DNA of 64,000 nucleotides. Origin: Burkholderiales bacterium (lineage in GTDB: Bacteria; Pseudomonadota; Gammaproteobacteria; Burkholderiales; WYBJ01). Every line of letters starts with the position of its first letter. Position 1 is the stretch's first letter. The notes beneath the pieces are model-generated. The model was not told where the DNA came from. It made no database searches and saw nothing but the letters and a program-made list of their open reading frames with translations. The stretch covers positions 670 to 64,669 of the forward strand of contig JADLAC010000043.1 of NCBI GenBank assembly GCA_020848435.1, read 5' to 3'. Both the position numbers and the translations under genes were made by a program. Shown piece by piece: positions 34,149-55,302 of the stretch.

Positions 34149-35147
34149 TTAGTCCACGCGGATGTTGAACGCCTTCACCACGGCGCCAATGCGCGCGCGC
34201 TCGGTCTGGATGAACTTGTCGAAGCCGCGCGGAGTGTCGGTGTAGACGTCGAGCCCGAGGCTCGTCTGGCGTTCCTTGACATCGGGCGCGAGCACCGCGG
34301 CACTGATCGCGGCGTTCAGCGCCGCGACGACCGGTGCGGGCGTGGCCGCGGGCGCGACGATGCCGAACCAGGTTCCCCCCTCGTAGCCCTTCAGCCCAAC
34401 CTCGCCGAAGGCCGGAATGTCCGGAAACATGGCGAGGCGCTTTTCGCTGCACACGCCGATCACCTTGAGCTTGCCGTTCTTCATCTGCGGGGCCACCAGC
34501 GCCATGCCCGTGAAATTGAGCAGCACGCGCCCGGCCAGCAGCTCGAGCGTCGCAGGCGCCGATCCCTTGAAGGCGACGTGCAGCAGCTTCACCCCCGCCA
34601 GCAGCTCGAACATGGCGCCGGCGAGATGCCCGGCCGAGCCGTTTCCGGTCGATGCGAACGCCAGCGTGCCGGGCTTCGACCTCGCCAATGCGATCAGCTC
34701 CGCGGGCGCGTTGGCGGCGAGCGATGGATGCGCGGCGACGACGTAGGAATACGCGGTTATGGGCGCGACCGGCACGAAATCCCGAGCGGCATCGTAGGGC
34801 AGGCGGCCGTAGACGTGCGGATTGATCGACATCGAGCCCGCCGAGGCGAACAGCAGCGTATAGCCGTCGGGATTTGCCTTGGCACCGAGCTCGGTGCCGA
34901 TGATGGTGTTCGCGCCGGGACGATGATCGAACACGATCTGCTGCTTCCAGCGCTCGGTGAGCTTGACCGCTATCGGGCGCAACAAAGTGTCGCCGACCCC
35001 GCCCGGCGAGAACGGCACGATGAGCCGTATCGGCCGGCTCGGGTAGTCGGTCGCTTCCTTCTGGGCGTGCGCGGCGCTCACCATGGCGGCCACGACCGCG
35101 CCTGCGACGAATCGAGCTGCTTTCAATGCCTTCACCCTCATCGTCAT
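34149..35147 (-). CDS. Bug/TctC-family substrate-binding protein
   Basis: MTMRVKALKAARFVAGAVVAAMVSAAHAQKEATDYPSRPIRLIVPFSPGGVGD... The start is ambiguous (35147, 35141 or tracked 35186). It lies about 70 nt downstream of the YeeE-like gene on the same strand. Confidence 0.85.
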   Translation of the reverse strand: MTMRVKALKAARFVAGAVVAAMVSAAHAQKEATDYPSRPIRLIVPFSPGGVGDTLLRPIAVKLTERWKQQIVFDHRPGANTIIGTELGAKANPDGYTLLFASAGSMSINPHVYGRLPYDAARDFVPVAPITAYSYVVAAHPSLAANAPAELIALARSKPGTLAFASTGNGSAGHLAGAMFELLAGVKLLHVAFKGSAPATLELLAGRVLLNFTGMALVAPQMKNGKLKVIGVCSEKRLAMFPDIPAFGEVGLKGYEGGTWFGIVAPAATPAPVVAALNAAISAAVLAPDVKERQTSLGLDVYTDTPRGFDKFIQTERARIGAVVKAFNIRVD

Positions 35148-35219
35148 CTTCAAAGTTGGGGTCACGAAGTTCACACAAGTCCACAATGCAATCCGCGAGA
35201 CCTGACCCCAAGTCCACCG

Positions 35220-36347
35220 TCAGGCTTCGCGCAGCATGCGCCAGTACTGGTATTTCATGGTGAGCACGGCGCCGATGACGATCGCGAAGAAGGTGAGAAT
35301 CGAGCCGAGCGCGAAGGTGGAGATGCCGGTGACCCCCTGGCCGATGGTGCATCCCATCGCGAGCACCCCGCCGGTGCCCATGAGCGCGCCACCCAGCACG
35401 TGGTTGCCGAAATCTCCCCACGAGAAGAAACGTTCGACGCGGAAATCTTTCGCCGCAAGGGCATGCAGCAGCGCGCCGAGGATCACGCCCGCGAGCGCGA
35501 CCACGCCGAAATTGACCAGCGACAGCCGGGCAGGGTCCATGAGATAGCGCACGCTGTCGCCCATGGGCGAGATGAAGGTGAAGGATTGCGCCTGCACGCG
35601 GCTCGGGATCTCGGTCGCCATCTCGGCGTATTCCTTCCACGCCTGCCCCATAGGCCCCGCGGTGAGATACCAGCCCGCCACGACGGCGAGGCCGACCACC
35701 GCGCCGCCCAGGATGTGGTCGAAGTCGCCCGTGAAGTCGCGCGACTTGAATACCCACGCGAGCATCGCCACGGCAGCCACGCCGGCCACGCCGAGCTTCG
35801 CTGCCGGGCTCGCCTCGAAGCCGAACATGCCCGCCAGTATCGCGCCCACCTCCTGCGAGGCCATGCCGTGGCGGGCGAGATCGATGCTGGTCGCCTGCAC
35901 CCAGGGCAGAAATGCCTTCTCGTACACGGGTGTCCACAACATGAGGTAGGCGCATAGCGCCGCCACCGCCAGCACCGTCAGCGACTTCACGTTGCCCCCG
36001 CCGATCCGAACCAGCGTGCGATTACCGCAGCCACTCGCGAGCGTCATGCCGATGCCGAACGTGAGGCCGCCGGCAAGATAACGCAGCCACGAGAAACTGG
36101 CGCTGCGATACGGCGGAAAAGTGTCGGTCGAGAGCCTAGCCAGACCCGCCGCCTCCAGCACGATCACGCCGGCGAGCGCGATCGCCATCGCGAACACCCA
36201 GGCGCGCATGCGTCCCGTGTGCCCCATGTTGACCCAGTCGGACACCGCGCCCATGGTGCAGAAGCGCGTCTTCTGACCGACCGCGCCGACCACGAGCGCG
36301 ATGACGAAAACCCAGAGCAGGACTTGCTGATGTATCGTGAAATCCAT
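35220..36347 (-). CDS. YeeE/YedE-family sulfur-compound transporter (SoxT-like), 375 aa
   Basis: This is a polytopic membrane protein with the paired conserved Cys motifs of the family: QKTRFCTMGAV, ASGCGNRTLVR and LAMGCTIGQGVTG. Confidence 0.85.
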   Translation of the reverse strand: MDFTIHQQVLLWVFVIALVVGAVGQKTRFCTMGAVSDWVNMGHTGRMRAWVFAMAIALAGVIVLEAAGLARLSTDTFPPYRSASFSWLRYLAGGLTFGIGMTLASGCGNRTLVRIGGGNVKSLTVLAVAALCAYLMLWTPVYEKAFLPWVQATSIDLARHGMASQEVGAILAGMFGFEASPAAKLGVAGVAAVAMLAWVFKSRDFTGDFDHILGGAVVGLAVVAGWYLTAGPMGQAWKEYAEMATEIPSRVQAQSFTFISPMGDSVRYLMDPARLSLVNFGVVALAGVILGALLHALAAKDFRVERFFSWGDFGNHVLGGALMGTGGVLAMGCTIGQGVTGISTFALGSILTFFAIVIGAVLTMKYQYWRMLREA

Positions 36348-36377
36348 GGCGTTACCTCCGCACGAACGGCTCGTGCC

Positions 36378-38093
36378 TCAAGCGCCGGGCGCGATCCCGG
36401 GATCGGCGCCGACACCGGAAAGCGCCGGCCGGTTCAGCGCCGGCGGGCGAATGGTCTTGCTGTTGCGCAGATACGTGCTCACGACCTCCCACACCGGCTC
36501 GCCGGATGCGCCCTCGGCCACCGGCGCCCAGCTCACGATCTTGTAGCGCTTGCCGGCCTCGATCGGTTGGCCCTTCAGCGTCATGTTGCCGATGCGCTTG
36601 CCCATCGCGGCCGTCGGATCGCAGGCGTAGCGCATGCCGCCGATGCGCACCATGTCGCCGCCTTGCTGGTAATAGGGATCGGGGTTGAACAGGTTGTCGC
36701 AGATATCTTCGAGCAGCGCCTTGATGCTCTCCCCGCTCAGCTCGTTCACGGTGACGTAAGGATAGGTGATCGCGGTCGCGTTCATGACGTCTTCGGTCGT
36801 GATCGGCGTCCCGGGGAGCACGCTCGTGCCCCAACGAAAGCCGGGCGAGAACGCGATCTCGGCGCCCTTCACCGCGAGCAGCGCATCGAGAATGACCTGG
36901 TCCAGCGTGCCATTGAAATTCCCGCGCCGGTAGAGCAAGCCCTCGCTCACGGCGAGCTTTTCGCCGAGCTTCGCCGCGTACGGTGCGCGGTACTTGCGAA
37001 TGAGCGCCTCCATGTCGGCATCGGCGGGGAGCGCATTGGCGAATACCGGCAGCAGGCGGTAGTCGTAGCCGCTCACCCCGGCGCGCGTGACCTCCAGGTC
37101 CAGCACGGCGAGAAACTTGCCGTTCGAGCCCGCGTTGGTGACCAAGGTCGTGCCGCTCGCGTTCTTCACGACAACCGGCCGGGGCACCGCGTCGTGCGTG
37201 TGACCGCCGAGAATGGCGTCGATGCCGGTCACGCGCGATGCGAGCTTCAAATCGACATCCATGCCGTTGTGCGAGAGCAGGATCACGGCCCAGGCGCCTT
37301 TGGCGCGCGCCTCCGCGACCGTCTTCTGCAGCCGCTCTTCCTGGATGCCAAAGGTCCACTCGGCGACGAAGTGGCGCGGATTCGCGATCGGCGTATACGG
37401 AAACGCCTGGCCGATGATGGCGACCGGCACGCCGTTGAGCTCGCGCAGCGAGTACGCCTTGAAGACGGGATCGTCGAAATCCGCGCTGCGCACGTTCTGC
37501 GCCAGGAATTCGATGCTGCCGAGATCCTCGGCGAGCGCCTGCTTCACGCGCGCCGCGCCATAGGTGAATTCCCAATGCGCCGTCATCATGTCCACGCCGA
37601 GCGCGCGGCAAGCGGCACGCATGTCGGCGCCCTGGGTCCACAGCGCGGTCGCGGAGCCTTGCCAAGTGTCACCGCCATCGAGCAGCAGAGCGCCGGGACG
37701 CTGCGCGCGCACTTGCTTCACCAGCGTGGCGAAGTGCGCGAAGCCACCGACCTTGCCGTACCTACGCGCCGCTTCGACGAAATCGAGGTGGCTGTAGGCG
37801 TGCGCGAGCGCCGTGCCTGGCGAGATGCCGAAATGGCGCAGCAACGCCTCGCCGACGAGGTGCGGCGGTTTGCCGCGCGCCTCCTTGACCCCGATGTTGA
37901 CGTCCGGCTCGCGAAAATAGACCGGCAGGAGCTGCGCGTGGCAGTCGGTGAAATGCAGTAGCGTGACCTGGCCGCGCCGCTTCGGCAGGACGTAGAGCGC
38001 TTGCGGCTCGCTTGCCGCGCGCGTCGCCAGCGGCAATCCGGCCGCGAGCGCGGCCGCCAGGACCTCGAGAAACTCGCGCCGCGTCATCGACAT
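36378..38093 (-). CDS. soxB: Thiosulfohydrolase SoxB
   Basis: Tat signal MSMTRREFLEVLAAA, then VTLLHFTDCHAQLLP...DGGDTWQGS...LLSHNGMDVD...GGHTHD. These are the dimanganese metallophosphoesterase motifs of SoxB, and the protein is 571 aa. Confidence 0.95.
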   Translation of the reverse strand: MSMTRREFLEVLAAALAAGLPLATRAASEPQALYVLPKRRGQVTLLHFTDCHAQLLPVYFREPDVNIGVKEARGKPPHLVGEALLRHFGISPGTALAHAYSHLDFVEAARRYGKVGGFAHFATLVKQVRAQRPGALLLDGGDTWQGSATALWTQGADMRAACRALGVDMMTAHWEFTYGAARVKQALAEDLGSIEFLAQNVRSADFDDPVFKAYSLRELNGVPVAIIGQAFPYTPIANPRHFVAEWTFGIQEERLQKTVAEARAKGAWAVILLSHNGMDVDLKLASRVTGIDAILGGHTHDAVPRPVVVKNASGTTLVTNAGSNGKFLAVLDLEVTRAGVSGYDYRLLPVFANALPADADMEALIRKYRAPYAAKLGEKLAVSEGLLYRRGNFNGTLDQVILDALLAVKGAEIAFSPGFRWGTSVLPGTPITTEDVMNATAITYPYVTVNELSGESIKALLEDICDNLFNPDPYYQQGGDMVRIGGMRYACDPTAAMGKRIGNMTLKGQPIEAGKRYKIVSWAPVAEGASGEPVWEVVSTYLRNSKTIRPPALNRPALSGVGADPGIAPGA

Positions 38094-38142
38094 GCTGGCT
38101 AGCGAATGGTGTCCGCCGCGCTGAGTTTGGCCTCGCCGCGAG

Positions 38143-38778
38143 CTAGCGGTTGAGCGGCGATTGCGGGTCGATCAGGTACGCGACCAGGTGCGTGATCTGA
38201 TCGCTCGTGAGATGCTTGTTCGCGCCGAGGCGCGGCATGTTCGAGCACGGGAAGTACAGCCAACTGTTGTAGACCTTTTCGTAGACGTACTTCGCCGTCT
38301 CCGGCGAATTGCCGCGCTTGGTGCCGAATCCGGTCAGCGCGGGGCCCACGTTGCCAACGTTGATCTCGCCGCGTGCGAGGGCATGACAGTTCTGGCACAG
38401 GCCGCCATTCTCCTTGCGCTTTTCCAGCACCCCGCGAGCGATGCGATCGCCCGCCCCGTCGTGCGCCAGCGCTTCGCCGATCTTCCAGTTGCCGACCAGC
38501 TTGCCCGAGGCAGGATACTGGATCGAGGTGCGAGCGAGCTCGATGACCTCGGCGGCCTCTTCCTGCGTCAGGGCGGCATCCTCCACCTTGCTACAGAGGC
38601 GTTGCGCGCGATCCTGCTCAAGGCGCTTGAGCAGCTGCGGCGATGGGGCGGTAAAGCTCGCGCTGACGATCTTCTCGGCGCTCGCCCGGGTCTCGGCGGC
38701 ATCCGGAAAGGTCGCGCAACCGAGCGCCAGCGCGGCAGGCACGCTAGCGGCAATGCATTTCCACCATCCAGCTCGCAT
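38143..38778 (-). CDS. soxX: Monoheme cytochrome c SoxX
   Basis: There is a single CQNCH heme motif followed by ...NVGPALTGFGTKRGNSPETAKYVYEKVYNSWLYFPCSNMPRLG. It sits between soxA and soxB. Confidence 0.85.
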   Translation of the reverse strand: MRAGWWKCIAASVPAALALGCATFPDAAETRASAEKIVSASFTAPSPQLLKRLEQDRAQRLCSKVEDAALTQEEAAEVIELARTSIQYPASGKLVGNWKIGEALAHDGAGDRIARGVLEKRKENGGLCQNCHALARGEINVGNVGPALTGFGTKRGNSPETAKYVYEKVYNSWLYFPCSNMPRLGANKHLTSDQITHLVAYLIDPQSPLNR

Positions 38779-38787
38779 GTTTGCTCC

Positions 38788-39597
38788 TCAGCGCTTGAAC
38801 CCGGGCACCTCGATGACGGCGCCGTGGCCTTGCCGGTGCAGATAGGTCGTGAGCGCGATCGACACATCCGAAAGATAAGTCAGCTCCGGCAGGCGCATCT
38901 GCCAGAAACAATCGTACAGCCGCCACTGCATCGTGCGCACCACGCCGTGCGAGCCGCGATAGGCTGGCCAGCTCGACACCACCCCCTGAATCCCGGCCGG
39001 CTCGGTCATGTTGATCAGATCCTGCAGACGGATGCGTTTGCCCGATTCGCCATGGCAGGTGACGCAGGCGAAATCGGTCTGCCCCGAGCGGCGGTGGAAC
39101 AGATACTCGCCCATCTTGTACATCTCGCGCTCCTTCGCATGCGCGAGCGGCGGATCCATCTTCATGCCGTTCGAGCGCGAGGTGACGTACAAGGCGAGCG
39201 ATTCGATATCCGAGCCGTCGCTCAAGGGCGCGCTGATCGCGCTCTTGGCCAGGGCCGCTTGATCGAAGCCCTGCAAGCGCACCATGCAAGTGACCAGGCG
39301 CGATTCGAGGTCCTGCACCCGATCGGTATCGGCGAAATAGCGCGGCAGCCGGGCCGCGGCGCCCGCCAGCTTGCCGGGGCCGAGCCCGAAGTCGCACTGC
39401 TCGAGGCTCGCCTGTTTCGGGCCGCGCTTCTCGTGGTAGAGGCGTTTGCCGCGATCGAGCCACAGCTCGCCCGGGTTGTCCTCCACCAGCATCTTGCGGC
39501 CGATTTCGAGTCCCTCGCCCGGGCTTTGCGCGCTGCTCGCGGCCGAACACAGGCACGCGAACGCGAGCGCCGCCACGCGAATGGGTCGTGTGGGCAT
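38788..39597 (-). CDS. soxA: Cytochrome c SoxA (single-heme type)
   Basis: There is one CVTCH motif. The conserved distal Cys lies in WRLYDCFWQMRLP. The N-terminal heme site is absent (EQCDFG). The protein is 269 aa with a signal peptide. Confidence 0.9.
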   Translation of the reverse strand: MPTRPIRVAALAFACLCSAASSAQSPGEGLEIGRKMLVEDNPGELWLDRGKRLYHEKRGPKQASLEQCDFGLGPGKLAGAAARLPRYFADTDRVQDLESRLVTCMVRLQGFDQAALAKSAISAPLSDGSDIESLALYVTSRSNGMKMDPPLAHAKEREMYKMGEYLFHRRSGQTDFACVTCHGESGKRIRLQDLINMTEPAGIQGVVSSWPAYRGSHGVVRTMQWRLYDCFWQMRLPELTYLSDVSIALTTYLHRQGHGAVIEVPGFKR

Positions 39598-39628
39598 GCT
39601 CCTCCTCCTATGCTTGGACTGTGTACGA

Positions 39629-39949
39629 TCAGGAGGGCGGCGCGACCGTTGCCTCGTCGGAACGCTTGTCGCCCTTGTTGTCGGTCCAGGTCACCATGAT
39701 TTTGTCGCCGGCCTTCGCGCCCTTGATGCGCAGCCCGAGAAACGGATCGCGCGACACCGCCTGACTCCATTGCGCGTCGAATACCGTCTTGCCGTTGTGG
39801 CTCACCACCACGTTCTGAATGAAATGCAACGGAATGACCTGCCCCTTCGCGTCCTTGCGTTGCCCGGTTTCCATCGGATGGCGCATGAGGATGCGCACAT
39901 CGGCCACGTCGCCCTGCAGCGTGGCTCTGATTCTCATCGGCTCAGCCAT
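39629..39949 (-). CDS. soxZ: Sulfur carrier complex subunit SoxZ
   Basis: MAEPMRIRATLQGDVADVRILMRHPMETGQRKD...HFIQNVVVSHNGKTVFDAQWSQAVSRDPFL is typical SoxZ. Confidence 0.9.
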   Translation of the reverse strand: MAEPMRIRATLQGDVADVRILMRHPMETGQRKDAKGQVIPLHFIQNVVVSHNGKTVFDAQWSQAVSRDPFLGLRIKGAKAGDKIMVTWTDNKGDKRSDEATVAPPS

Positions 39950-39985
39950 TACGGCATTCTCCCTGGTCGCGTCGCAGCGAGCGTA

Positions 39986-40450
39986 TCAACCGCATCCGCC
40001 GACGGTGACCTTCACTTCCTTCACCGCGGTGTAGAACTTGCCGTCGGCCTTGACGATCGCGCGCACATTCGAGGTCTGGCCCATCTTCAGGCGCACCGAG
40101 GCGTAGCCCTCGGCGCCGCTGCCGAAATCGAACGTCGCCGCCAGCGGGAACGGATTCTTTTCCGCGATGATGGAAATGCTCTGGGTATTGGGCAGCTTGC
40201 TCGTCACCGCGATCGGCACGACCGCACCGTTTTCCGCGATGTCCGGAGCCGTGATGATGATGTCCTTCGACTCGAGCGCATCGGTCGCGCCCAGGTGCTT
40301 GACCGCTTCGGCCGCCGCCTTGGAGTCGAACCCGGCCGCGTTGCGCGCGGCCCCGGCCGGCATGACCGCGATCAGCCCGAGCGCAGCGGCCGCTCCCCAT
40401 GCCGCGGTGCCCGCGCTTGCTTCGAGAAAACGCCTGCGTGAACGCTTCAT
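39986..40450 (-). CDS. soxY: Sulfur carrier protein SoxY
   Basis: It has the Tat signal MKRSRRRFLE. The invariant C-terminal swinging arm ends ...VKVTVGGCG. Confidence 0.95.
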   Translation of the reverse strand: MKRSRRRFLEASAGTAAWGAAAALGLIAVMPAGAARNAAGFDSKAAAEAVKHLGATDALESKDIIITAPDIAENGAVVPIAVTSKLPNTQSISIIAEKNPFPLAATFDFGSGAEGYASVRLKMGQTSNVRAIVKADGKFYTAVKEVKVTVGGCG

Positions 40451-40530
40451 GAACCCTCCTCGCTAAACGGTTGCGTCCGGCGTGCATTCGCGCCTGCTGC
40501 CGGCAATCGCACCGGCGCGCCTCGCCGCGC

Positions 40531-40557
40531 GAAAACATAATATATGAAAAGGCGAAT
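40531..40557. promoter_or_regulatory. The only AT-rich patch (gaaaacataatatatgaaaaggcgaat) in the 107-bp divergent soxY / plus-strand-array intergenic region; candidate promoter or operator
   Basis: Read directly. It contains CATA-N3-TATG dyad symmetry and a TATAAT-like stretch in an otherwise very GC-rich spacer. Confidence 0.3.
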
Positions 40558-41661
40558 ATGATTACAATGGCCGGGTTTCGGCTTGCAGCTAGACTTGGCG
40601 CCATGCACGTCGACGTGTTCCTCGAATTCGCCTCGCCGCCGGCGGCAGGCCATCGCCTGGACGAGGTTTTCGGCAACGGTCTCGCGGCTGCCCGCGCCGC
40701 CGACCGGGCGGGCTTCGGGGCCGTCTGGCTCGCCGAGCACCATTTCCTCGGCGACTATTCGAACGCGGCCGCACCCGAGATGCTGGCCGCGGCGATGGCG
40801 CGCGAGACCCGGCGGATCGGCCTGGGCTTTGCCGTGATCCCGCTGCCGCTGCACGACCCCGTGCGCGTCGCCGAGCGGCTCGCGACGCTCGATCTGCTCT
40901 CGAACGGACGCGCGTTATGGGGCGTGGGCCGTGGCGTCACAGCGGCCGAGCTGCACGCTTTTGGCGTCGAGCCCGCGCACAGCCGCGGCGAGTTCCTGCG
41001 TCGCTACGCGGAGCTGGCCGCGGTGCTGCGCAGCGGCGACGTCGTGCGCGGGGGTCGCGCGCTGAAGCTTCGCCCCGCCCCCGCGGCGCGGCTCGCGCAG
41101 GGCTGGATGGCCGCGGTGAGCCCCGAGAGCTACACCCTTGCCGCCGAGCTCGGCCTCGACGTGATGGCCGGTCCATTCAAACCCTGGCGCTGGGTGCGTG
41201 CCGATTTGGCGCGTTATCGCCTGCTGCGCCCGCAAGGGCGAACCTCGTTCACGCTCGCTTGTTATTGCGAGCGCGACCATGCCGCGGCGCGCAGGCGCGC
41301 CGGCCCAGGCATCGTCTGGGCGTTCCGCCATATCGTCGAGGTCGCGCGCCCGTTCCTGAGCACCCGCACCGGAGGTTACGAGTATTACCGCCGTCTGGGC
41401 GTCGCTTCCATGCTGATGGAGCAGCGGCTGAGCCTGCCCCTGCTGGAGCTGCTCGGACTGGCCGCGGTCGGCGATCCGGCGCACGTCGCGGCGAAGCTCG
41501 CCCGGCTCGCCGCGTCCGGCTTGGACCGGGTACAGCTCGTCATTGGCGGCGGCGACCTGGCTGCCGCGCAGCTCGAAGCCTGTATCGACCTCCTCGCCGA
41601 GCGCGTGCTGCCCGCGCTTGCCGCGGCGGGGCCTTCAGCCGCAGTCGAGGAGGCCGCTTGA
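40558..41661 (+). CDS. Luciferase-like (LLM-class) flavin-dependent oxidoreductase
   Basis: ...MHVDVFLEFASPPAAGHRLDEVFGNGLAAARAADRAGFGAVWLAEHHFLGDYSNAAAPEMLAAAMARETRRIGLGFAVIPLPLHDPVRVAERLATLDLLSNGRALWGVGRG is the canonical LLM TIM-barrel N-terminal pattern. The start is ATG 40558 (after AAAAGG) or ATG 40603. Confidence 0.8.
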   Translation: MITMAGFRLAARLGAMHVDVFLEFASPPAAGHRLDEVFGNGLAAARAADRAGFGAVWLAEHHFLGDYSNAAAPEMLAAAMARETRRIGLGFAVIPLPLHDPVRVAERLATLDLLSNGRALWGVGRGVTAAELHAFGVEPAHSRGEFLRRYAELAAVLRSGDVVRGGRALKLRPAPAARLAQGWMAAVSPESYTLAAELGLDVMAGPFKPWRWVRADLARYRLLRPQGRTSFTLACYCERDHAAARRRAGPGIVWAFRHIVEVARPFLSTRTGGYEYYRRLGVASMLMEQRLSLPLLELLGLAAVGDPAHVAAKLARLAASGLDRVQLVIGGGDLAAAQLEACIDLLAERVLPALAAAGPSAAVEEAA

Positions 41662-44640: not shown

Positions 44641-44664
44641 TCGATAACGACGAGGAGAAGCGCC

Positions 44665-45924: not shown

Positions 45925-45931
45925 GCTCGCC

Positions 45932-47008: not shown

Positions 47009-47014
47009 ATCGCC

Positions 47015-47740: not shown

Positions 47741-47800
47741 ACATATTCGATTTGCGTTATATGATCAGGCCGGGTATCGTTGCCGCGAAGGATGCCGACA

Positions 47801-48178
47801 ATGAGCAAGAAGCTGGTAATCGTGATGGTGAACACCGATACGCGTAACGGCGAGGAGCTCGGCGCGCCGCTGTTCCAGGCGAGCGTCGCGGCCGCGATGG
47901 ATTACGAGGTCGAAGTGATCTGCACGGCGACCGCCGGGCGGCTCATGAACAAGGGCGTCGCCGAAAACCTGGTGGTGAAACCGGGCTCGCCCAAGACCGT
48001 GTACGATTTCATCAAGGACGCCCACGAGGCCGGGGTGAAGTTCTACGCCTGTTCGCCCAACCTGGAGCTGTTCGGCGTGACCGAGGCGGACCTCATCCCG
48101 GAATGCGCGGGTGTCGTCGGCGGCGCCTACCTGATCGAGCAGGTGATGGAAGGCGACTGCAAGGTCCTAAGCTACTGA
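47801..48178 (+). CDS. dsrE: DsrE/DsrF-family sulfur-relay protein (125 aa)
   Basis: MSKKLVIVMVNTDTRNGEELGAPLFQASVAAAMDYEVEVICTATAG...VKFYACSPNLELFG contains the conserved active-site Cys context. It lies directly upstream of shdrC1. The subtype (DsrE3 and so on) cannot be resolved by eye. Confidence 0.8.
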   Translation: MSKKLVIVMVNTDTRNGEELGAPLFQASVAAAMDYEVEVICTATAGRLMNKGVAENLVVKPGSPKTVYDFIKDAHEAGVKFYACSPNLELFGVTEADLIPECAGVVGGAYLIEQVMEGDCKVLSY

Positions 48179-48186
48179 GCACCGCC

Positions 48187-48933
48187 ATGCACGCCACGGC
48201 CAGCCGCAAGCAGCAGCACATCGGCGATCCGCTGTCGCCGCAGCCGGTGCTCGATCGGGCGCGGCTCGAAGCGATTTTCAACGACATCCAGGCCGACGCC
48301 CGCTACGACCACGAGCTGAACGGGTGCTTGAACTGCGGCATCTGCACCGCGACCTGCCCGGCGGCGCAGTACTACGATTTCAGCCCGCGCGAAATCGTCC
48401 AGCTCCTGTGGACCGAGAACCTGGAGGGCATCTACGACGCGATGCAGGAAAAGATCTGGGCCTGCGCCCAGTGCTATACCTGCGCCGCGCGCTGCCCCTT
48501 CCGCAATTCGCCCGGCAGCCTCATCATGATCATGCGCGAGGTGGCGATCAAGCACGGGCTGCAATCGGCGAAAGACGTGCTGCGGCCGTTCTCGCGCGTG
48601 ATGCTGAAGCTGATCTCGACCGGCAACCAGCTCTCGCCCGACATGATCACCGCCGATCACTTCGCCGACTGGGGGCCGAACATCTCCAAGATCGATGCGC
48701 CGCTCAAGCTGTTGCGCCAGGCGATCCCCATGCCCACGCTCAACACCATGCAGACGGCTTGGGAGGTCAACCTCAAGACCTCGATCGAGCTCTATACCAT
48801 ATGGGAGATGACCGGCGTGCTGAAGCAGCTCGAGATCATCGACGAAAACCTGTTCGACGTGATCACCGACATCATGGACGAGAAGCGCGAGGACTACGAG
48901 GACTGGCGCGAGTCGCAAGACGGCAACGAGTGA
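48187..48933 (+). CDS. shdrC1: Heterodisulfide-reductase-like subunit C1 (two 4Fe-4S ferredoxin motifs)
   Basis: CLNCGICTATCP and CAQCYTCAARCP motifs are present. The position and size (248 aa) fit sHdrC1. Confidence 0.85.
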   Translation: MHATASRKQQHIGDPLSPQPVLDRARLEAIFNDIQADARYDHELNGCLNCGICTATCPAAQYYDFSPREIVQLLWTENLEGIYDAMQEKIWACAQCYTCAARCPFRNSPGSLIMIMREVAIKHGLQSAKDVLRPFSRVMLKLISTGNQLSPDMITADHFADWGPNISKIDAPLKLLRQAIPMPTLNTMQTAWEVNLKTSIELYTIWEMTGVLKQLEIIDENLFDVITDIMDEKREDYEDWRESQDGNE

Positions 48934-48961
48934 CGGCGCTGGACGCCGGCGGAGGCATGGC

Positions 48962-50305
48962 ATGAACGACATCGAGGGCACTCGTTTCACCGGTCACGGA
49001 CCGGAGTGGAAGGACGCGAAGCTCAGCGCGCGGGATGCGCGGGCCGCGACCGCCTGGGTGGAGGCGAAAGTCGACCGCGCGGCCTTGACCGGCAAGGATC
49101 GCGTCGAGGACGTGCGCGATCGCATGCGCGAGCTGGAGCGCGACGGCGAAATCGTCGTGCACCGCATCCGCGACGAGCACGCACCGGTCGAGGCCAAGAC
49201 GCTCTACGGCTGGACCAAGCGCATCCCCACGGCGCAGCTCTGGCATCACAAGTCCTGCGGCCAGTGCGGCAACATTCCGGGCTACCCGACCTCGCTGCTG
49301 TGGCTCATGAACCAGCTCGGCACGGTCTACCTGGACGAGACCGACCAGACCTCGTGCACCGCCTGGAACTACCACGGCTCGGGCATCGGCAACCTGGAGA
49401 GTCTCGCCTGCGTCTTCCTGCGCAACTTCCACCAGGCTTATGTCTCGGCGCGCGCGCAAGGGCTGCCCGATGGCTACTATTTCCCGCTGGTTCACTGCGG
49501 CACCTCCTTCGGCAATTACAAGGAAGTGCGCGCCTACCTGCTGCGCTCGGCGGAGCTGCGCGAGAAAGTGAAGAAGGTGCTGGCGAAGCTCGGCCGGCTG
49601 GTCGACGGCAAGCTGCTCATTCCCGAGGAGGTGGTGCATTACTCGGAGTGGCTGCACGTCATGCGCAGCCGTATCCGCGCGATCCAGACCATCGATGTCG
49701 GCAAGCTGCGTGCCGTCATCCACCCGGCATGCCACGTCTACAAGATGGTCCCCGAGGACGCGATCTACGACGATGAAGTGCTCGACGGCAACCGGGTCGC
49801 GGTGTCCACCGGCCTCGTCCAGGCGCTCGGCGCGCAGGTGATCGATTATTCAACCTGGTACGACTGCTGCGGCTTCGGCTTCCGCCACATCATCTCCGAG
49901 CGCGAATTCACCCGCTCGTTCGCCATGGACCGCAAGGTCAAGGTCGCGGTCGAGGAAGCGCACGCCGACGTGATGATCGGTCACGATACCGGTTGCATAA
50001 CCACGCTCGACAAGAACCAGTGGATCGGCAAAGCGGCCGGCAAGCACGCCGAGATCCCGATCGTCGCCGATTGCCAGTTCGCCGCGCTCGCCTGCGGGGC
50101 GCACCCGTACAAGATCGCGCAGCTGCACTGGCACGCCTCGCCGGTCGAGAAACTGCTCGCGCAGATGGGCATCGACTGGCAGCGGGCCAAGGCCGAATTC
50201 GAGAGCTATCTCGAAGCAGTGCGCAATGGCCGTGGCGAGCATCTGTACGACCCGCGCCGCGCCATTACCTCCGGGCCGGGCGCGCGCAAACCCGTGATGG
50301 CGTAA
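48962..50305 (+). CDS. shdrB1: Heterodisulfide-reductase-like subunit B1 (CCG domain)
   Basis: The ATG follows GGAGG. Motifs: HHKSCGQCGNIPGY, TSCTAWNYHGSG, HPACHVYK and YDCCGFGFRH (CCG motif). The protein is 447 aa. Confidence 0.85.
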   Translation: MNDIEGTRFTGHGPEWKDAKLSARDARAATAWVEAKVDRAALTGKDRVEDVRDRMRELERDGEIVVHRIRDEHAPVEAKTLYGWTKRIPTAQLWHHKSCGQCGNIPGYPTSLLWLMNQLGTVYLDETDQTSCTAWNYHGSGIGNLESLACVFLRNFHQAYVSARAQGLPDGYYFPLVHCGTSFGNYKEVRAYLLRSAELREKVKKVLAKLGRLVDGKLLIPEEVVHYSEWLHVMRSRIRAIQTIDVGKLRAVIHPACHVYKMVPEDAIYDDEVLDGNRVAVSTGLVQALGAQVIDYSTWYDCCGFGFRHIISEREFTRSFAMDRKVKVAVEEAHADVMIGHDTGCITTLDKNQWIGKAAGKHAEIPIVADCQFAALACGAHPYKIAQLHWHASPVEKLLAQMGIDWQRAKAEFESYLEAVRNGRGEHLYDPRRAITSGPGARKPVMA

Positions 50306-50310
50306 CGACC

Positions 50311-51354
50311 ATGACCATACTCGTAGTGGGTGCCGGCCCGGCCGGGTTGGCGGCGGCGTATGCCCTGGCCCGGGTCGGCCAGCCGGTAACGCTGGTGGAC
50401 AAGGCGCAGCGCCTGGGCGGCGCGCCGATTCTTTCCGGCTATGCGAAGCTGATTCCCTCGGGCGAATGGGCGCGCGATGCGATCGGCGGCATGGTGCGCC
50501 GGGTCGAAGAGGCGGCCCTCGTGAGCGTGGAAACGAACACCACGGTGAGTGCATTCGACGGAGAGGCGGGCAAGTTCACCGCCCGTTTGAGCAACGGCAA
50601 GAGCGTGCCATGCGCTGCCGCCATCCTGTGCACGGGCTTCACCCACTTCGATTCGGTGAACAAGCCCGAATGGGGCTTCGGCACCTATCCCGATGTCGTG
50701 ACCACGACCCAGGTGGAGCAGATGATCTCCTCTGGCCAGGGCGTACGCTGCCCCTCGGACGGCCGCAAGCCCGAGCGCGTCGCCATCCTGCTGTGCGTCG
50801 GCTCGCGCGACCGGCAGATCGGCCGCGAATGGTGCTCGAAGGTATGCTGCACCGTGTCGGCGAATCTCGCCATGGAGATTCGCGAAGAGCTGCCTCAGTG
50901 CCATGTGTACATCTATTACATGGACATCCGCACCTTCGGCTTGAACGAGGACCTGTACTACTGGCGCAGCCAGGAACAGTTCAAGGTCAAGTACATCAAG
51001 GCACGGATCGCCGAGGTCACTTCCGACGGCCAGCGGCTGGTCGTGAAGGGCGAGGATACGCTGGTTAAGCGCCCCATCACCATACCGTTCGACCTGGTCG
51101 TGCAAGCGATCGGCATGGATCCCAATGTCGACAATCGCGCGCTGGCCGCGGTGTTCGGAGTCGGTCTGCAGCACCACGGCTACGTCGCGCGCGCCAGCGC
51201 GTATGCCGGCATGGCGCTGTCGACACGTCCCGGGGTGTTCGTGGCGGGTGCGGCTACCGGACCGGAGACGATCGACGACTCGATCGCCCAAGGCGAAGCA
51301 GCGGCGATGGCCGCCCTCGGCGTGGTGCGCGCCAGCGCCGCGCTGGCAGCGTGA
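50311..51354 (+). CDS. shdrA: Heterodisulfide-reductase-like flavoprotein subunit A (short sHdrA type, 347 aa)
   Basis: MTILVVGAGPAGLAAAYALARVG is the FAD motif. ILLCVGSRDRQIGREWCSKVCCTVS is the HdrA 4Fe-4S Cys pattern. GVFVAGAATGPETIDDSIAQG lies at the C-terminus. Confidence 0.9.
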   Translation: MTILVVGAGPAGLAAAYALARVGQPVTLVDKAQRLGGAPILSGYAKLIPSGEWARDAIGGMVRRVEEAALVSVETNTTVSAFDGEAGKFTARLSNGKSVPCAAAILCTGFTHFDSVNKPEWGFGTYPDVVTTTQVEQMISSGQGVRCPSDGRKPERVAILLCVGSRDRQIGREWCSKVCCTVSANLAMEIREELPQCHVYIYYMDIRTFGLNEDLYYWRSQEQFKVKYIKARIAEVTSDGQRLVVKGEDTLVKRPITIPFDLVVQAIGMDPNVDNRALAAVFGVGLQHHGYVARASAYAGMALSTRPGVFVAGAATGPETIDDSIAQGEAAAMAALGVVRASAALAA

Positions 51355-51358
51355 TCGC

Positions 51359-52210
51359 ATGCGAGCAGCAAGCGTCGCGGCGCCGGCCTCGGTTGCGCAC
51401 CCCACGCTGCACCTGAGCGGTCCCAAGCTGCGCACTGCGCTCGAGCGCCTGCTCGCCGGCACCGAGGCCGCCGGCGGCATCGAGCGCTGGGTCGGCGGAC
51501 TGAAGCTCAAGGCGGCGGTGTTCGAACGCTCGCTCCACAACTCGCAGCTCGGCGCGCTCGACGAGCATACCTTCCTCGGCGTGTGCGCGCTGATGCCCAC
51601 GGTGCGCCGGCGCATCGCTGCGTGGCTTTCGCGCACGGGCTTCGATGCCGCGCGCAGGCTCTTGCGAGAGCTGCTCGACGAAGCGCGCGACGCAGCGAGC
51701 ACGGATGATCGCATTGCCACCTTCTGCGCCGGGTTTCCGGCCGATCGCGAGCATCGCTACGCGCGCGATCTCGCCGCCGAGCTGCTGCACTGGAGCGCGC
51801 TCGAACGCCATCCTCTCATGACGCGCTGGGTGTGGGACCAGGCGGCGGATAGCGGCGTCCTGCGCGAGATCTGGCACGACGCTGCGGACCCCGCGCTGAA
51901 CCGCATCGCCGATGGCCGCGACACCTTCCTCGTCCTGCGCGCAGAGCTCGCACAATACCTGACCGACAACGGCTTCTTTCGCGACGTACCGCTGTACGTG
52001 GACCTGCTGTGCGCGCAAGTCTATGCGAGCTACATCGCGGAACAAGGCGGGAGCTACTTGCGTGCCGACTTTTCATCCGAGCACGATCCCATGCAGTACG
52101 TCCGCCGCATGTTGGGGCTCGATGGCATCGATATCGACAGCGGCCTGACGCGCTTGAAGCTCGCCGACGGCCGCGCGTATGTGTTGCACCCCGCGGCGCA
52201 CCAGACCTGA
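51359..52210 (+). CDS. shdrH: Conserved hypothetical protein of sHdr clusters (sHdrH position), 283 aa
   Basis: It has no recognisable motifs. The assignment rests on its invariant position between shdrA and shdrC2 and a 4-nt gap to shdrA. Confidence 0.65.
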   Translation: MRAASVAAPASVAHPTLHLSGPKLRTALERLLAGTEAAGGIERWVGGLKLKAAVFERSLHNSQLGALDEHTFLGVCALMPTVRRRIAAWLSRTGFDAARRLLRELLDEARDAASTDDRIATFCAGFPADREHRYARDLAAELLHWSALERHPLMTRWVWDQAADSGVLREIWHDAADPALNRIADGRDTFLVLRAELAQYLTDNGFFRDVPLYVDLLCAQVYASYIAEQGGSYLRADFSSEHDPMQYVRRMLGLDGIDIDSGLTRLKLADGRAYVLHPAAHQT

Positions 52211-52225
52211 TGCGCGACCGAGCCC

Positions 52226-52993
52226 ATGCCGATCCATGAGAAATCGCTGATCCGCCCCGAGAACCTCGTCACGCACGACCAGCTCGTGCTCGACGGGGTC
52301 GACGTGTCGGGGCATTGGAGCACCTTCATCCAGCCGCGCGCGCTCACCGACTACAACGAGCGCCTGCAGGAAGAGATCGCCGCCCTCGACGGCGGCGAGA
52401 ACATCCACCGCTGCTGGCAATGCGGGTCGTGCACCAACGCGTGTACCGTCAACGCGATCAATCCGGATTTCAATCCGCGCTACTGGATCTACCTCATCCG
52501 CTTGGGGATGGAAGCGGAGCTGGTGCGCGACAAGGACATCATCTGGCAGTGCGTGTCGTGCCACAAGTGCACCTACGCCTGCCCGCGCGATGTCGTCCCG
52601 GAAGGCGTGATGAAGGCGACCGCGCACTGGCTCGCGCTCAACGGCCACACGCCGAAGTCGCCCGCCGCGCACTTCGACGAGGTGTTCACGAGCCAGATCG
52701 TCGCCACCGGCCGGATCGAGGAAGGCCGTGTCATACGCCAGTTCTTCGACCGCACCGGCCAGCCGCTCAAGCAGGATTGGCTGCTGGAGATGGCGCGACG
52801 GCTGCTCGCCAAGCTGCCGCTCACGCTGATGATCAAGATGGGGCTTGCCGCAGTGTTCCGCCCGCGCACGCGGCGCTGGGGGAAAGTGCGTGCGGCGCTC
52901 GCGCAACACCTGGCCGAGCACGAGCGCAATGCGCGCTCGGCGGGCACGGCCAGGGCTGCGGCAGGCGCGCCGATGAAAGGCTCGGAGGGCTGA
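52226..52993 (+). CDS. shdrC2: Heterodisulfide-reductase-like subunit C2
   Basis: CWQCGSCTNACT and CVSCHKCTYACP ferredoxin motifs are present. The protein is 255 aa. Confidence 0.85.
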   Translation: MPIHEKSLIRPENLVTHDQLVLDGVDVSGHWSTFIQPRALTDYNERLQEEIAALDGGENIHRCWQCGSCTNACTVNAINPDFNPRYWIYLIRLGMEAELVRDKDIIWQCVSCHKCTYACPRDVVPEGVMKATAHWLALNGHTPKSPAAHFDEVFTSQIVATGRIEEGRVIRQFFDRTGQPLKQDWLLEMARRLLAKLPLTLMIKMGLAAVFRPRTRRWGKVRAALAQHLAEHERNARSAGTARAAAGAPMKGSEG

Positions 52994-53012
52994 CGCCGTT
53001 GACGAGGCAGCA

Positions 53013-53939
53013 ATGACGAACAAATACCGCAAGGTCGCCTATTACCCCGGCTGTGCGCTGGAGGGTAGCGGCCACGCCTACCATCGTTCCACCAAGGCGC
53101 TCGGCAAGGCGCTCGGCCTCGACTTGGTCGAAGTGAAGAACTGGAACTGCTGCGGCGCGATGGAAGCGAAGAATATCGATCCGAAGCTCCAGACCTACCT
53201 GTCGTCGCGCGTCATGAGCATCGCCGCCGGCGAAATGGGCTTCGACACCGTCATGGCGCCGTGCAACGGCTGCTATCACAATCTCAAGAAGGCCGAATAC
53301 GATCTCGCGCACGATCCGGCCAGCGTCGAAGTCGTCGAGAAGCTCGCCCGCAAGGGCGGCCACGAGCCGTATCGCAGCGGCTCGCTCGAGACCATACACG
53401 CGCTCGACTGGATCAAGGAAGCGATTGGCGAGGACGGCATCCGCAGCCGCGTGAAGAAGTCGCTCGCCGGCATCCGGATCGCGAACTACTACGGCTGCCT
53501 GTATACGCGCCCGCGCCACATCTTCCCGGAGAAGGACAAGGGCCCCGGCAGCGAGTCGACCGCGAAGCCGCACTTCATGGACGACATCCTGCGAGCGGCC
53601 GGCGCCGAGATCGTCGAGTTTCCCTTGAAGACAGCCTGCTGTGGCGGCGCGCACACGCTCTCGGATTCGGATACGTCCACCAAGCTGGTGCTCAACATCC
53701 TGGAAGCCGCCGAGATGTGCGGCGCCGACATCATCGCAACCGAGTGCCCGACCTGCCATTCGGGCCTGGAGATGCACCAGGTGCGCGCGGAAAAGAACTT
53801 CGGCCGCAAGACGGCCGTGAAAATGCTCTACTTCACGCAGCTTCTCGGGATCGCGCTCGGCCTGCCCCCGCGCCGACTCGGCGTGCAGGAGAATGTTTCC
53901 GACGCCCGGGCGCTGCTCGAAGCGAAGGGACTGGCATGA
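53013..53939 (+). CDS. shdrB2: Heterodisulfide-reductase-like subunit B2 (two CCG domains)
   Basis: YYPGCALEGSG, NWNCCGAME, APCNGCYHN, YYGCLYTRP, KTACCGGAH and ECPTCHSG together form the classical HdrB double-CCG layout. The protein is 308 aa. Confidence 0.9.
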   Translation: MTNKYRKVAYYPGCALEGSGHAYHRSTKALGKALGLDLVEVKNWNCCGAMEAKNIDPKLQTYLSSRVMSIAAGEMGFDTVMAPCNGCYHNLKKAEYDLAHDPASVEVVEKLARKGGHEPYRSGSLETIHALDWIKEAIGEDGIRSRVKKSLAGIRIANYYGCLYTRPRHIFPEKDKGPGSESTAKPHFMDDILRAAGAEIVEFPLKTACCGGAHTLSDSDTSTKLVLNILEAAEMCGADIIATECPTCHSGLEMHQVRAEKNFGRKTAVKMLYFTQLLGIALGLPPRRLGVQENVSDARALLEAKGLA

Positions 53940-54358
53940 GAACGCTGGCCGAGCTCGAAACCGCCGCCGTGCGCGTTCGCGACGGCGAAGCGGCGCCGGT
54001 GGAACGCTCGGAGGCGTTGCTCGCGCTCGCCGAAGCGACCTTGGAGCACTGGCTGCTCGCGCACGACCTGATGCCGACCGGCGCGAAGCGCGAAGGATTC
54101 CGCTTGCTCGCATTGCATCGCCAGGGCAGTCGGGACGATCCCAGCTTCAACGCCTGCCGCGAAACCTGCCGCGAGATCGTCTACCATCACAATGTCATCG
54201 CCGCCGAGCGCGTCTCGCCCGAGGCGCCCCGGCAGGCGCGATTGATGGCGATGCTGGTGCTGCACCTGATCCTGTTCGTGGGCGGCAAGCTGCAGAACGC
54301 CAAGCTGGGCGAGTTCTGCTGCTCGGCACGCCCGCTGCACGCCGAGACCAACTGCTAG
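53936..54358 (+). CDS. Hypothetical Cys-containing protein (140 aa), translationally coupled to shdrB2
   Basis: The ATG overlaps the shdrB2 stop as ATGA. MRTLAELETAAVRVRDGEAAPVERSEALLALAEATLEHWLL...FNACRETCREIVYHH...EFCCSARPLHAETNC. I recognise no family. Confidence 0.6.
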   Translation: MRTLAELETAAVRVRDGEAAPVERSEALLALAEATLEHWLLAHDLMPTGAKREGFRLLALHRQGSRDDPSFNACRETCREIVYHHNVIAAERVSPEAPRQARLMAMLVLHLILFVGGKLQNAKLGEFCCSARPLHAETNC

Positions 54359-54376
54359 GAACAGCGGAGACGAGCG

Positions 54377-54817
54377 ATGCCTATTGTGCGCGGGTGCAAT
54401 CTGCCCGATGAGCTGCTGTACGATGTCGACAGCCATATCTGGTTCACCGAGCTGCCCGACGGCAACGTACGCCTGGGAATGACGGCGGTCGCGACCGCCT
54501 TGGCGGGACAGGTCGTCGCGGTGACACCGAAGAAAGTCGGCCGCTCGGTCGATGCCGGCAAGTCGTGCGCCACCATCGAAAGCGGGAAATGGGTCGGCCC
54601 GGCGAAGAGCGCGGCTGCCGGCGAGATCGCCGCGGTCAATACCGCGGTCGCGGCGCGGCCGGCGCTCATCAACGACGATCCCTACGGACAAGGCTGGCTG
54701 GTCGAAATCAAGCCGAGCGATTGGCCGAGCGTCAAGGCAACGCTGACGCCGGGCACCGCGGTCGCCGCGAAATACGAGGCCAAGATGCAGGCTGACGGCT
54801 TTCAAGGCTGCAAGTAG
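54377..54817 (+). CDS. lbpA: GcvH-like lipoate-binding protein LbpA
   Basis: MPIVRGCNLPDELLYDVDSHIWFTELPDGNVRLGMT...GKSCATIESGKWVGPAKSAAAGEI...DPYGQGWLVEI shows the GcvH fold pattern, with the lipoyl-Lys in ESGKW. It lies at the end of the shdr genes, and the ATG follows GGAGACG. Confidence 0.85.
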   Translation: MPIVRGCNLPDELLYDVDSHIWFTELPDGNVRLGMTAVATALAGQVVAVTPKKVGRSVDAGKSCATIESGKWVGPAKSAAAGEIAAVNTAVAARPALINDDPYGQGWLVEIKPSDWPSVKATLTPGTAVAAKYEAKMQADGFQGCK

Positions 54818-54860
54818 TCCCGGTATGAGCTAGCGTCACGCTCGCCGTCCGTGCGTCGCA

Positions 54861-54870
54861 TCGATATCGA
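54861..54870. promoter_or_regulatory. Perfect 10-bp palindrome TCGATATCGA ending 3 nt before the ArsR-type regulator ATG
   Basis: Read directly. It occupies the position where a Shine-Dalgarno sequence would be expected. Confidence 0.3.
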
Positions 54871-54873
54871 ACC

Positions 54874-55302
54874 ATGGTCCAGGGTGTAGACAAGCGCCTG
54901 CTCGCCACCAGCGCACGGCGCGCGAGCCGGTTCTTGAAGGCGCTCTCCAACGAGCACCGCTTGCTCGTGCTGTGCAACCTGGTGGAGGCCGAGAAGACGG
55001 TGCGCGAGCTGGAAGCCATCCTCGGCATCAGCCAACCGACGCTGTCGCAACAGCTTGCGCGCCTGCGTGCCGATGGACTGGTCACCACGCGCCGCGACGG
55101 CAAGTCGATTCACTACTCGCTGGCAAGCGAGGATGCGCGGGCGCTGATCGGCCTGCTTTACCAGCGCTTCTGCGCCCCCGCGCAGGCACCGAGGGCGGCG
55201 CGGATTCGCCGTTCGCGCGCGCCGTCCGCGACGGCCGCGCTGGCGAGCCCGAGCGCTCACCGGAGCGTGAGGAATAACGCGCACGCCAAGCCAATGCCGT
55301 AA
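54874..55302 (+). CDS. ArsR/SmtB-family transcriptional regulator (sHdrR/SoxR-like), 142 aa
   Basis: FLKALSNEHRLLVLCNLVEAEKTVRELEAILGISQPTLSQQLARLRADGLVTTRRDGKSIHYSL is a winged HTH. One Cys lies in the alpha2 helix region (VLCNL) and a second after the wing (RFCAP). A low-complexity tail overlaps the convergent UbiA-family gene by 46 nt. Confidence 0.85.
   Translation: MVQGVDKRLLATSARRASRFLKALSNEHRLLVLCNLVEAEKTVRELEAILGISQPTLSQQLARLRADGLVTTRRDGKSIHYSLASEDARALIGLLYQRFCAPAQAPRAARIRRSRAPSATAALASPSAHRSVRNNAHAKPMP

Follow-up and report, generated by a model that had tools for sequence, protein, structure and literature searches.

The locus described here raises the question of how a bacterium whose sox operon has no soxCD beside it would deal with the sulfur left on its carrier protein, and of how it would build the lipoylated protein that such a route calls for. 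It lies in a 64,000-nucleotide stretch of a Burkholderiales metagenome-assembled genome (MAG), contig JADLAC010000043.1, positions 670 to 64,669 of the forward strand (assembly GCA_020848435.1); this whole stretch is called the window below, and all coordinates are counted from its first letter. Our analysis supports the assignment of the locus as a type I sHdr-LbpA system that brings its own genes for lipoate assembly and is joined to a sox operon that locally lacks soxCD. We put the probability at about 0.8 that it amounts to a complete two-compartment thiosulfate oxidation pathway together with the machinery that builds its cofactor. The Sox-sHdr-LbpA core is already known as the Hyphomicrobium pathway, to which this locus adds a Burkholderiales example; the new part is a pair of genes, for a flavin monooxygenase and an AurF-like diiron protein, that heads the lip operon. 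What we report from direct observation is which genes are present and in what order, the diagnostic residues, and the closeness of the products to characterized proteins.

The GC content of the window is about 67%, and since high GC gives rise to many spurious open reading frames, genes were called by third-position GC and start-codon context. This analysis of codon-position GC and start codons reproduced the layout given by an earlier annotation made from the DNA alone (the sequence-only reading), with soxY-Z-A-X-B on the minus strand from 40450 down to 36378 and 17 genes on the plus strand from 40558 to 55302. The junctions of the plus-strand array also came out exactly as listed there: four overlaps of 4 nt and gaps of 4-28 nt, apart from wider ones between lipX and dsrE (60 nt) and between lbpA and arsR (56 nt). 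Pfam and NCBIfam family assignments cover all 23 genes, and every product named by the sequence-only reading agrees with them. The public accessions from MCC6533713 (the diiron protein, 100% identical) to MCC6533727 (LbpA) are consecutive and give the same gene count, and an Rfam search of the cluster returned zero RNA elements. Related loci were collected by a profile scan with the diiron protein, using one genome per GTDB species. The block from lipS1 to the shdr genes is also present in dozens of Alpha-, Beta- and Gammaproteobacteria at 50-89% identity.

The genes of the sHdr complex and its immediate neighbors are the following.

47801 to 48178, plus strand: DsrE3-type sulfurtransferase in the position of dsrE3C (PF13686, PF02635)
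48187 to 48933, plus strand: shdrC1, with two 4Fe-4S motifs and matches to HdrC models below cut-off; 78-87% identical to relatives
48962 to 50305, plus strand: shdrB1, with a CCG domain and a match to the HdrB model below cut-off
50311 to 51354, plus strand: shdrA, 598 bits to Hyphomicrobium denitrificans sHdrA (PDB 6TJR)
51359 to 52210, plus strand: shdrH, named by position only; 50-56% identical to the gene in the same position in relatives
52226 to 52993, plus strand: shdrC2, with ferredoxin motifs; 72-74% identical to relatives
53013 to 53939, plus strand: shdrB2, with two CCG domains (81.7 bits; CCG at residues 46 and 209)
53936 to 54358, plus strand: small Cys-rich protein in the position of sHdrI, with NACRETC and EFCC motifs conserved in relatives

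A type I sHdr system is defined by the core shdrC1-B1-A-H-C2-B2 in one syntenic cluster (PMC11094781), and the window carries these six genes in that order on one strand (48187-53939) with gaps of 4-28 nt. The DsrE protein is 76-81% identical to the DsrE encoded upstream of shdrC1 in relatives. Judged by its sequence, sHdrA is the decisive marker of the sHdr type. This 347-aa protein aligns over its full length with the H. denitrificans structure, with roughly 80% identity by eye, whereas the methanogen HdrA chains (643-671 aa) give 163-182 bits and align over residues ~100-342 only. Homologous domains are shared with methanogen HdrABC (PDB 5ODC and others), namely the HdrA flavin, HdrB CCG and HdrC ferredoxin domains, and the best named matches of the set are the NCBIfam models for HdrA, HdrB and HdrC, as would suit a reductive or electron-bifurcating heterodisulfide reductase of the methanogen or Flox-Hdr type, unrelated to sulfur oxidation. 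All of these model matches fall far under their cut-offs, however, and an sHdrA of roughly half the methanogen length, the duplicated B and C subunits, the lack of a CoM-CoB context and the flanking LbpA, DsrE and lip genes make such an enzyme extremely improbable. A sulfur-oxidizing sHdr complex, as would be expected by analogy with H. denitrificans, is the assignment that we adopt.

The lipoate-binding protein is encoded shortly downstream of shdrB2.

54377 to 54817, plus strand: lbpA, lipoate-binding GcvH-like protein (PF01597, 108 bits)

LbpA scores just below the cut-off of the GcvH models of NCBIfam, and its K71 (in the motif ESGK) aligns with the lipoyl-lysine of Escherichia coli GcvH (ESVK). 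LbpA proteins are told from GcvH by a conserved cysteine near each terminus (PMC6067878); here the two are C7 (VRGCN) and C145 (QGCK), which are conserved in three relatives, and GcvH is without both. The public version of this protein, MCC6533727.1 (133 aa), starts 13 codons late and drops C7 (54377-54417). Since relatives share the N-terminus MxxVRGCN from the first residue on, we conclude that the public annotation cuts off a conserved cysteine; a GGAG also precedes the ATG at 54377.

The genes for lipoate assembly precede the shdr genes on the same strand.

42515 to 43576, plus strand: lipS1, radical-SAM lipoyl synthase subunit (NF053742 LipS1, 185.9 bits; C79x3C83x2C86)
43573 to 44640, plus strand: lipT, geranylgeranyl-reductase-like flavoprotein (TIGR02032, 192 bits against a cut-off of 158.8)
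44665 to 45924, plus strand: lipS2, radical-SAM lipoyl synthase subunit (NF053743 LipS2, 178.1 bits; C109x3C113x2C116)
45932 to 47008, plus strand: slpl(AB), fused lipoate/octanoate:protein ligase (PF21948, 146 bits)
47015 to 47740, plus strand: lipX, GATase1-like protein (PF00117, PF07722)

The five genes lipS1-lipT-lipS2-slpl(AB)-lipX (42515-47740) stand in one operon beside shdr and lbpA. In NCBIfam, the two radical-SAM proteins match the LipS1 and LipS2 models best, and both carry the CX3CX2C motif. Residues 288-351 of sLpl(AB) match NF053749, an LplB-like C-terminal domain, and both the LplA and the LplB parts are thus present in one polypeptide. The route of a ligase plus LipS1/LipS2 was first described only in 2022-2023. 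The gene order is the same as that of the H. denitrificans lip genes (PMC10332631, PMC11582611), and we take the name of lipX and the role of LipT from the first of these papers. In combining a ligase with two radical-SAM sulfur-inserting proteins, the set resembles the archaeal LplAB and LipS1/LipS2 of Thermococcus kodakarensis (PMC9585515), but here a single fused protein serves as ligase, the scores of LipS1 and LipS2 stay under the cut-offs, LipT, LipX and an oxygenase pair are added, and the target is LbpA rather than GcvH or E2. The claims of the sequence-only reading for this part of the locus are therefore well borne out: the Hdr-like genes are of the sHdr type (598 bits to the H. denitrificans protein against at most 182 to methanogen HdrA), LbpA has its lipoyl-lysine when aligned, and a dedicated lipoate-assembly set, followed by dsrE, precedes shdr as in H. 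denitrificans. That reading had named observations that could overturn it, such as Hdr-like proteins of the methanogen type or an LbpA without this lysine, and those checks that were run all came out for the Sox-sHdr-LbpA system.

The sox genes run in the opposite direction.

39986 to 40450, minus strand: soxY, periplasmic sulfur carrier (PF13501, 115.7 bits; twin-arginine motif RRRFL)
39629 to 39949, minus strand: soxZ (PF08770, 125.7 bits)
38788 to 39597, minus strand: soxA, monohaem form (PF21342, 119 bits; single CVTCH at residue 178)
38143 to 38778, minus strand: soxX (TIGR04485, 77.3 bits against a cut-off of 61; CQNCH at residue 128)
36378 to 38093, minus strand: soxB, thiosulfohydrolase (TIGR04486, 837 bits against a cut-off of 550; twin-arginine motif TRREFL)
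35220 to 36347, minus strand: soxT, YeeE/YedE-like membrane protein and candidate sulfur importer (PF04143, 196.7 bits; weak TsuA matches)

The gene set of a truncated Sox system is thus present, as SoxX, SoxA, SoxB, SoxY and SoxZ are all encoded. SoxB and SoxX pass the NCBI equivalog cut-offs, twin-arginine signals are found on SoxY and SoxB, and SoxA and SoxX have one haem motif each. In H. denitrificans the sulfur importer is SoxT1A (PMC11582611). Among the approximately 60 genes of the 64-kb window we found no SoxC/SoxD-like product, and dsrAB and soeABC are likewise not encoded there. Were soxCD to be present elsewhere in the genome, thiosulfate could be fully oxidized in the periplasm, and sHdr-LbpA might instead serve the sulfane sulfur of organosulfur compounds or the detoxification of sulfide. 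The 64 kb that were examined and a cluster without tusA leave room for such an arrangement, but sox and shdr diverge from a single control region, the importer gene soxT sits inside the sox operon, and in several relatives the sox genes adjoin the lip/shdr block (those flanks were not searched for soxCD). We consider a complete Sox system with a separate use for sHdr-LbpA quite unlikely, and prefer a Sox system that hands its sulfur on to sHdr.

The last gene of the plus-strand array encodes a candidate regulator.

54874 to 55302, plus strand: ArsR/SmtB repressor of the sulfane-sulfur-sensing type (sHdrR/SoxR/SqrR-like; 88 bits to SqrR, PDB 6O8K)

This protein contains exactly two cysteines, C34 and C100, which align with both sensing cysteines of SqrR, and their spacing of 66 residues is the same as that of C50 and C116 in H. 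denitrificans sHdrR. Two-cysteine regulators are rarely encoded beside shdr genes (PMC12423496), and this locus therefore belongs among the less common cases.

By analogy with the genetics of H. denitrificans, sulfur flow and its regulation at this locus may be pictured as follows. In the periplasm, SoxXA would couple thiosulfate to the cysteine of SoxYZ and SoxB would hydrolyze sulfate off; because no SoxCD is encoded at the locus, the sulfane sulfur would stay on SoxY. The YeeE-like SoxT would then import this sulfur, the DsrE3-type sulfurtransferase would hand it onward, and the cytoplasmic type I complex (sHdrC1B1A-H-C2B2) with lipoylated LbpA would oxidize it to sulfite. The cofactor of LbpA would be built in place, with sLpl(AB) attaching octanoate to K71 and the LipS1/LipS2 radical-SAM pair inserting two sulfurs, LipT probably serving as electron supplier. 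The two-cysteine ArsR-type repressor would free the promoters when sulfane sulfur is present.

Several observations weigh against this picture. LipS1 (185.9 bits against an NCBIfam cut-off of 230) and LipS2 (178.1 against 270) both score under the equivalog level. sHdrH and the small Cys-rich protein have no Pfam or NCBIfam match and are identified by position alone; both are kept at the same positions in relatives, and an sHdrI is mentioned in PMC11582611. SoxY ends in ...VTVGGCG, one glycine short of the canonical GGCGG of four relatives. The 3' end of soxY reads GGC GGA TGC GGT TGA (the terminal GGT TGA at 39986-39991) and the cysteine of the swinging arm is retained, so that the shorter end is either a natural variant or a consensus error of the MAG. 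The truncation of the Sox system, as claimed by the sequence-only reading, stands within the window only, which covers 64 kb out of a contig that spans at least 194 kb in an incomplete MAG. Type I sHdr systems usually have a tusA, and a tblastn of the window with E. coli TusA gave chance matches only. Finally, we found no inverted repeat in the spacer between soxY and the monooxygenase gene, and the SqrR-type box ATTC-N8-GAAT is absent from every intergenic gap.

A comparison with the shdr-lbpA2-sox locus of H. denitrificans, which combines a type I sHdr with a truncated Sox system (Koch & Dahl 2018; PMC6067878, PMC10332631, PMC11582611, PMC12423496), shows how much is shared. Both loci have soxXABYZ with no soxCD in the locus, a YeeE-like SoxT, the series lipS1-lipT-lipS2-slpl(AB)-lipX-dsrE3C-shdrC1B1AHC2B2-small protein-lbpA, and a two-cysteine ArsR repressor. 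The present locus differs in its host, a Burkholderiales MAG, in having the monooxygenase and diiron genes before lipS1, in a cluster that is without tusA or rhodanese, in having one repressor and one SoxT in the window, and in its sox genes, which diverge from the lip/shdr array and encode a SoxY ending in GGCG. The core cluster is useful for annotation and not surprising by itself.

The two genes at the head of the plus-strand array were named without comment by the sequence-only reading; they are the one non-standard conserved feature of the locus.

40603 to 41661 (alternative start 40558), plus strand: luciferase-like flavin monooxygenase, first gene of the array (PF00296, 149.8 bits)
41658 to 42518, plus strand: AurF-like diiron oxygenase (PF11583, 119.7 bits against a gathering threshold of 29.6)

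The monooxygenase falls below the cut-off of every NCBIfam subfamily. Its AlphaFold 2 model (mean predicted local distance difference test score, pLDDT, 90.4) has its best fold matches among the Enhygromyxa luciferase 8CBB, RslO1, LuxA and the OX domain of a polyketide synthase/nonribosomal peptide synthetase (template modeling (TM) scores 0.74-0.80), and not among sulfonate monooxygenases. It shares the TIM-barrel fold of these LuxA-type enzymes (Vibrio LuxA, 8CBB, RslO1, OX domain 6KET) but is only 21-25% identical to them, and there is no luxCDE or polyketide synthase context here. LuxA-type enzymes oxygenate aliphatic aldehydes or carrier-tethered acyl groups. The diiron protein has seven predicted ligands, E74, E104, H107, E154, H185, E189 and H192, which are invariant in 64 family sequences, and this set of 4 Glu and 3 His aligns with the ligand motifs of AurF. 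Its model (pLDDT 93.7) is most similar to AurF/CmlI (TM 0.60-0.70, about 20% identity) and then to R2-like ligand-binding oxidases (R2lox), with which it shares a ferritin-like four-helix core. Although the ligand set is that of AurF, the phmmer match to AurF is weak (E = 0.017), and, unlike the AurF/CmlI arylamine N-oxygenases, the protein belongs to a separate small family with no antibiotic-biosynthesis context. Arylamine N-oxygenation in an antibiotic pathway was considered as a role for it, and is argued against by the constant lipS1 neighborhood described below. Taken together, the models suggest that both proteins resemble enzymes for aliphatic or carrier-tethered substrates, so that a role on the octanoyl or lipoyl arm, or on a precursor, would be compatible, yet is not proven.

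The diiron family is small, with 61 members at E <= 1e-30 and 349 at E <= 1e-10 among 1.84 billion representative proteins. Proteins of the LipS1 type are far more common (4537 at E <= 1e-20 in an indexed search), and only a minority of lip operons can therefore carry the pair. For the best 80 of the 257 diiron relatives, the window proteins were mapped onto the loci by tblastn. A diiron orthologue of at least 48% identity was found at 36 loci (34 distinct records) from Rhodospirillales, Thalassospiraceae, Magnetovibrio, Kiloniellales, Hyphomicrobiales, Ectothiorhodospiraceae and Burkholderiales. The monooxygenase gene lies directly upstream of the diiron gene in 33/33 orthologous loci with enough flank, and LipS1 is encoded within 2 kb downstream of it in 29/29. 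In the window, 4-nt overlaps chain the monooxygenase gene, the diiron gene, lipS1 and lipT. In one genome the block monooxygenase-diiron-lipS1-lipT-lipS2-slpl(AB) is enclosed by sox genes, and the fetched 10-kb flanks contain no shdr; the tightest partner of the pair is therefore the lip operon rather than shdr. We conclude that the monooxygenase and the diiron protein form a conserved accessory module of the lipoate-assembly operon.

Some evidence tells against a functional tie of this kind. Distant paralogues of the diiron protein (30-41% identity) occur in unrelated contexts, beside housekeeping genes such as sucCD, NAD synthetase and PII in Thioalkalivibrio, Sulfuriferula, Acidiferrobacter and others; being housekeeping, these neighbors are uninformative on function. 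The fold class is the sole biochemical clue to the module, and the studied model organisms, among them H. denitrificans, which is described without such genes, apparently work without the pair. The two genes might then be passengers, an oxygenase pair for an unrelated substrate that stands before lipS1 by chance. Against this are the perfect synteny among orthologues across three proteobacterial classes, the translational coupling of the pair to lipS1, and the presence directly upstream of lipS1 of a second, divergent diiron subfamily, and we regard a chance association as very unlikely. This second subfamily is seen in two Betaproteobacteria (L047, L064), where a diiron paralogue of 35-39% identity has no monooxygenase beside it; these loci apparently represent an independent pairing of a diiron protein with lipS1.

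The conserved accessory module is often joined by a further gene. About 20 loci have an extra ~1.1-1.4 kb between the diiron gene and lipS1, which, where annotated, is a histone-deacetylase (HDAC)-like gene (PF00850). This gene is absent from the window, and three lipS1 loci without the oxygenase pair still have it just upstream of lipS1. Overall, most related loci have it immediately before lipS1, whether or not the pair is present (L002:10870-11979, L004:10870-11991, L085:5611-6693, L086:5658-6914, L087:6847-8004). Among solved structures its product is closest to Aquifex aeolicus HDLP (1C3R, 216 bits), with HDAC8, HDAC1 and HDAC2 next. The zinc-dependent HDAC11 can take C8-C18 acyl groups as well as lipoyl groups off lysine (bioRxiv 10.1101/212043). 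The HDAC-like protein may be an octanoyl- or lipoyl-lysine amidohydrolase. Two predicted proteins were set aside as functional links. P0247 (L095:157-2136; predicted 659 aa) has fused AurF-like and HDAC-like domains, and comes from one sample as a single 2.3-kb contig, so that a frameshift is possible; P0273, an LplA fragment attached to an AurF fragment, appears to be an artefact of assembly or of a deletion.

As to what the module does, we tentatively propose that the pair forms an oxygen-dependent branch of sLpl(AB)/LipS1/LipS2 lipoate assembly in aerobic sulfur oxidizers, to which most carriers add the HDAC-like amidohydrolase; this is a possibility that we would not place at even odds. 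Such a branch might make or salvage the free C8 acid for the ligase, strip wrongly or incompletely modified acyl groups from LbpA, or chemically modify the LbpA-bound cofactor. The source of octanoate for the ligase is named in neither PMC6067878 nor PMC10332631. In the literature on sHdr, LbpA, LipS1 and LipS2 that was searched (subscription-only papers lay outside the search) we found no mention of a luciferase-like, diiron, AurF or deacetylase gene. A role in sulfur chemistry, with the pair oxygenating an organosulfur compound or a protein-bound persulfide, would be in keeping with the membership of SsuD, SfnG and DszA in the luciferase-like family and with the fact that all carriers are sulfur oxidizers. 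We think it unlikely, as the monooxygenase is nearest to LuxA-like and carrier-protein-acting members and gives only ~28 bits to SsuD, and the pair accompanies lipS1 even where no shdr is adjacent. With a part in lipoate assembly as the preferred reading, the oxygenase pair and, in relatives, the HDAC-like gene are testable candidates for the missing steps of the lip pathway, the octanoate source among them.

The start of the monooxygenase gene also bears on the spacing of the two divergent transcription units.

40451 to 40602, strand not applicable: control region separating soxY from the divergent plus-strand array, with an AT-rich stretch

Translation probably begins at the ATG at 40603, giving a protein of 352 aa, in agreement with the public record and with the homologues, which align to the longer model from residue 15-16 onward. 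The spacer between soxY and the array, given as 107 bp in the sequence-only reading, is correct for a start at 40558 and becomes 152 bp with the start at 40603. It contains a single sigma-70-like site, at 40567-40539 on the minus strand and thus on the strand of soxY (one against 0.1 expected), and a TATGAT at 40557-40562 on the plus strand. A second sigma-70-like site (47738-47765) lies in the 60-nt gap between lipX and dsrE, upstream of dsrE. The heptamer ATATGAT has only two copies in the 64 kb, a count that is not above chance overall; the two copies head the two putative plus-strand transcription units, each with an AAACATA 20-23 nt upstream (40533-40562, 47739-47765), and the combination could be a shared promoter or operator. 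A palindrome upstream of the repressor gene, TCGATATCGA, was considered as an operator and dropped as not distinctive.

At the other end of the locus, a YeeE-like gene does follow soxB as had been claimed (35220-36347), but two genes rather than one are found there, and the leftmost is of another kind.

34149 to 35186, minus strand: TctC/Bug-family periplasmic binding protein (PF03401, 214 bits)

This gene begins 33 nt after soxT and is co-directional with the sox operon; it is probably not part of the sulfur-oxidation system. Binding proteins of the TctC/Bug family are typical of Burkholderiales, and the window contains eight matches to the family, with seven genes or fragments at 7266-8318, 11517-12677, 12750-13019, 16589-17983, 19197-20456, 27890-28879 and 34149-35186. 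The fourth of these, called on the plus strand, overlaps a minus-strand gene call at 15659-16903. A tRNA-Lys(CTT) at 8401-8476 is followed by a stretch of lower GC (0.62) reaching to 11480, which encodes helix-turn-helix proteins and a RelE-like toxin, and 8401-11480 resembles a small islet inserted at the tRNA. In an organic-acid cluster at 20284-32044, an 876-aa protein is a doubled family-III CoA-transferase and a 1221-aa protein fuses biotin carboxylase with biotin carrier and carboxyltransferase; an FAD protein is also encoded there, as is an MmgE/PrpD-like dehydratase.

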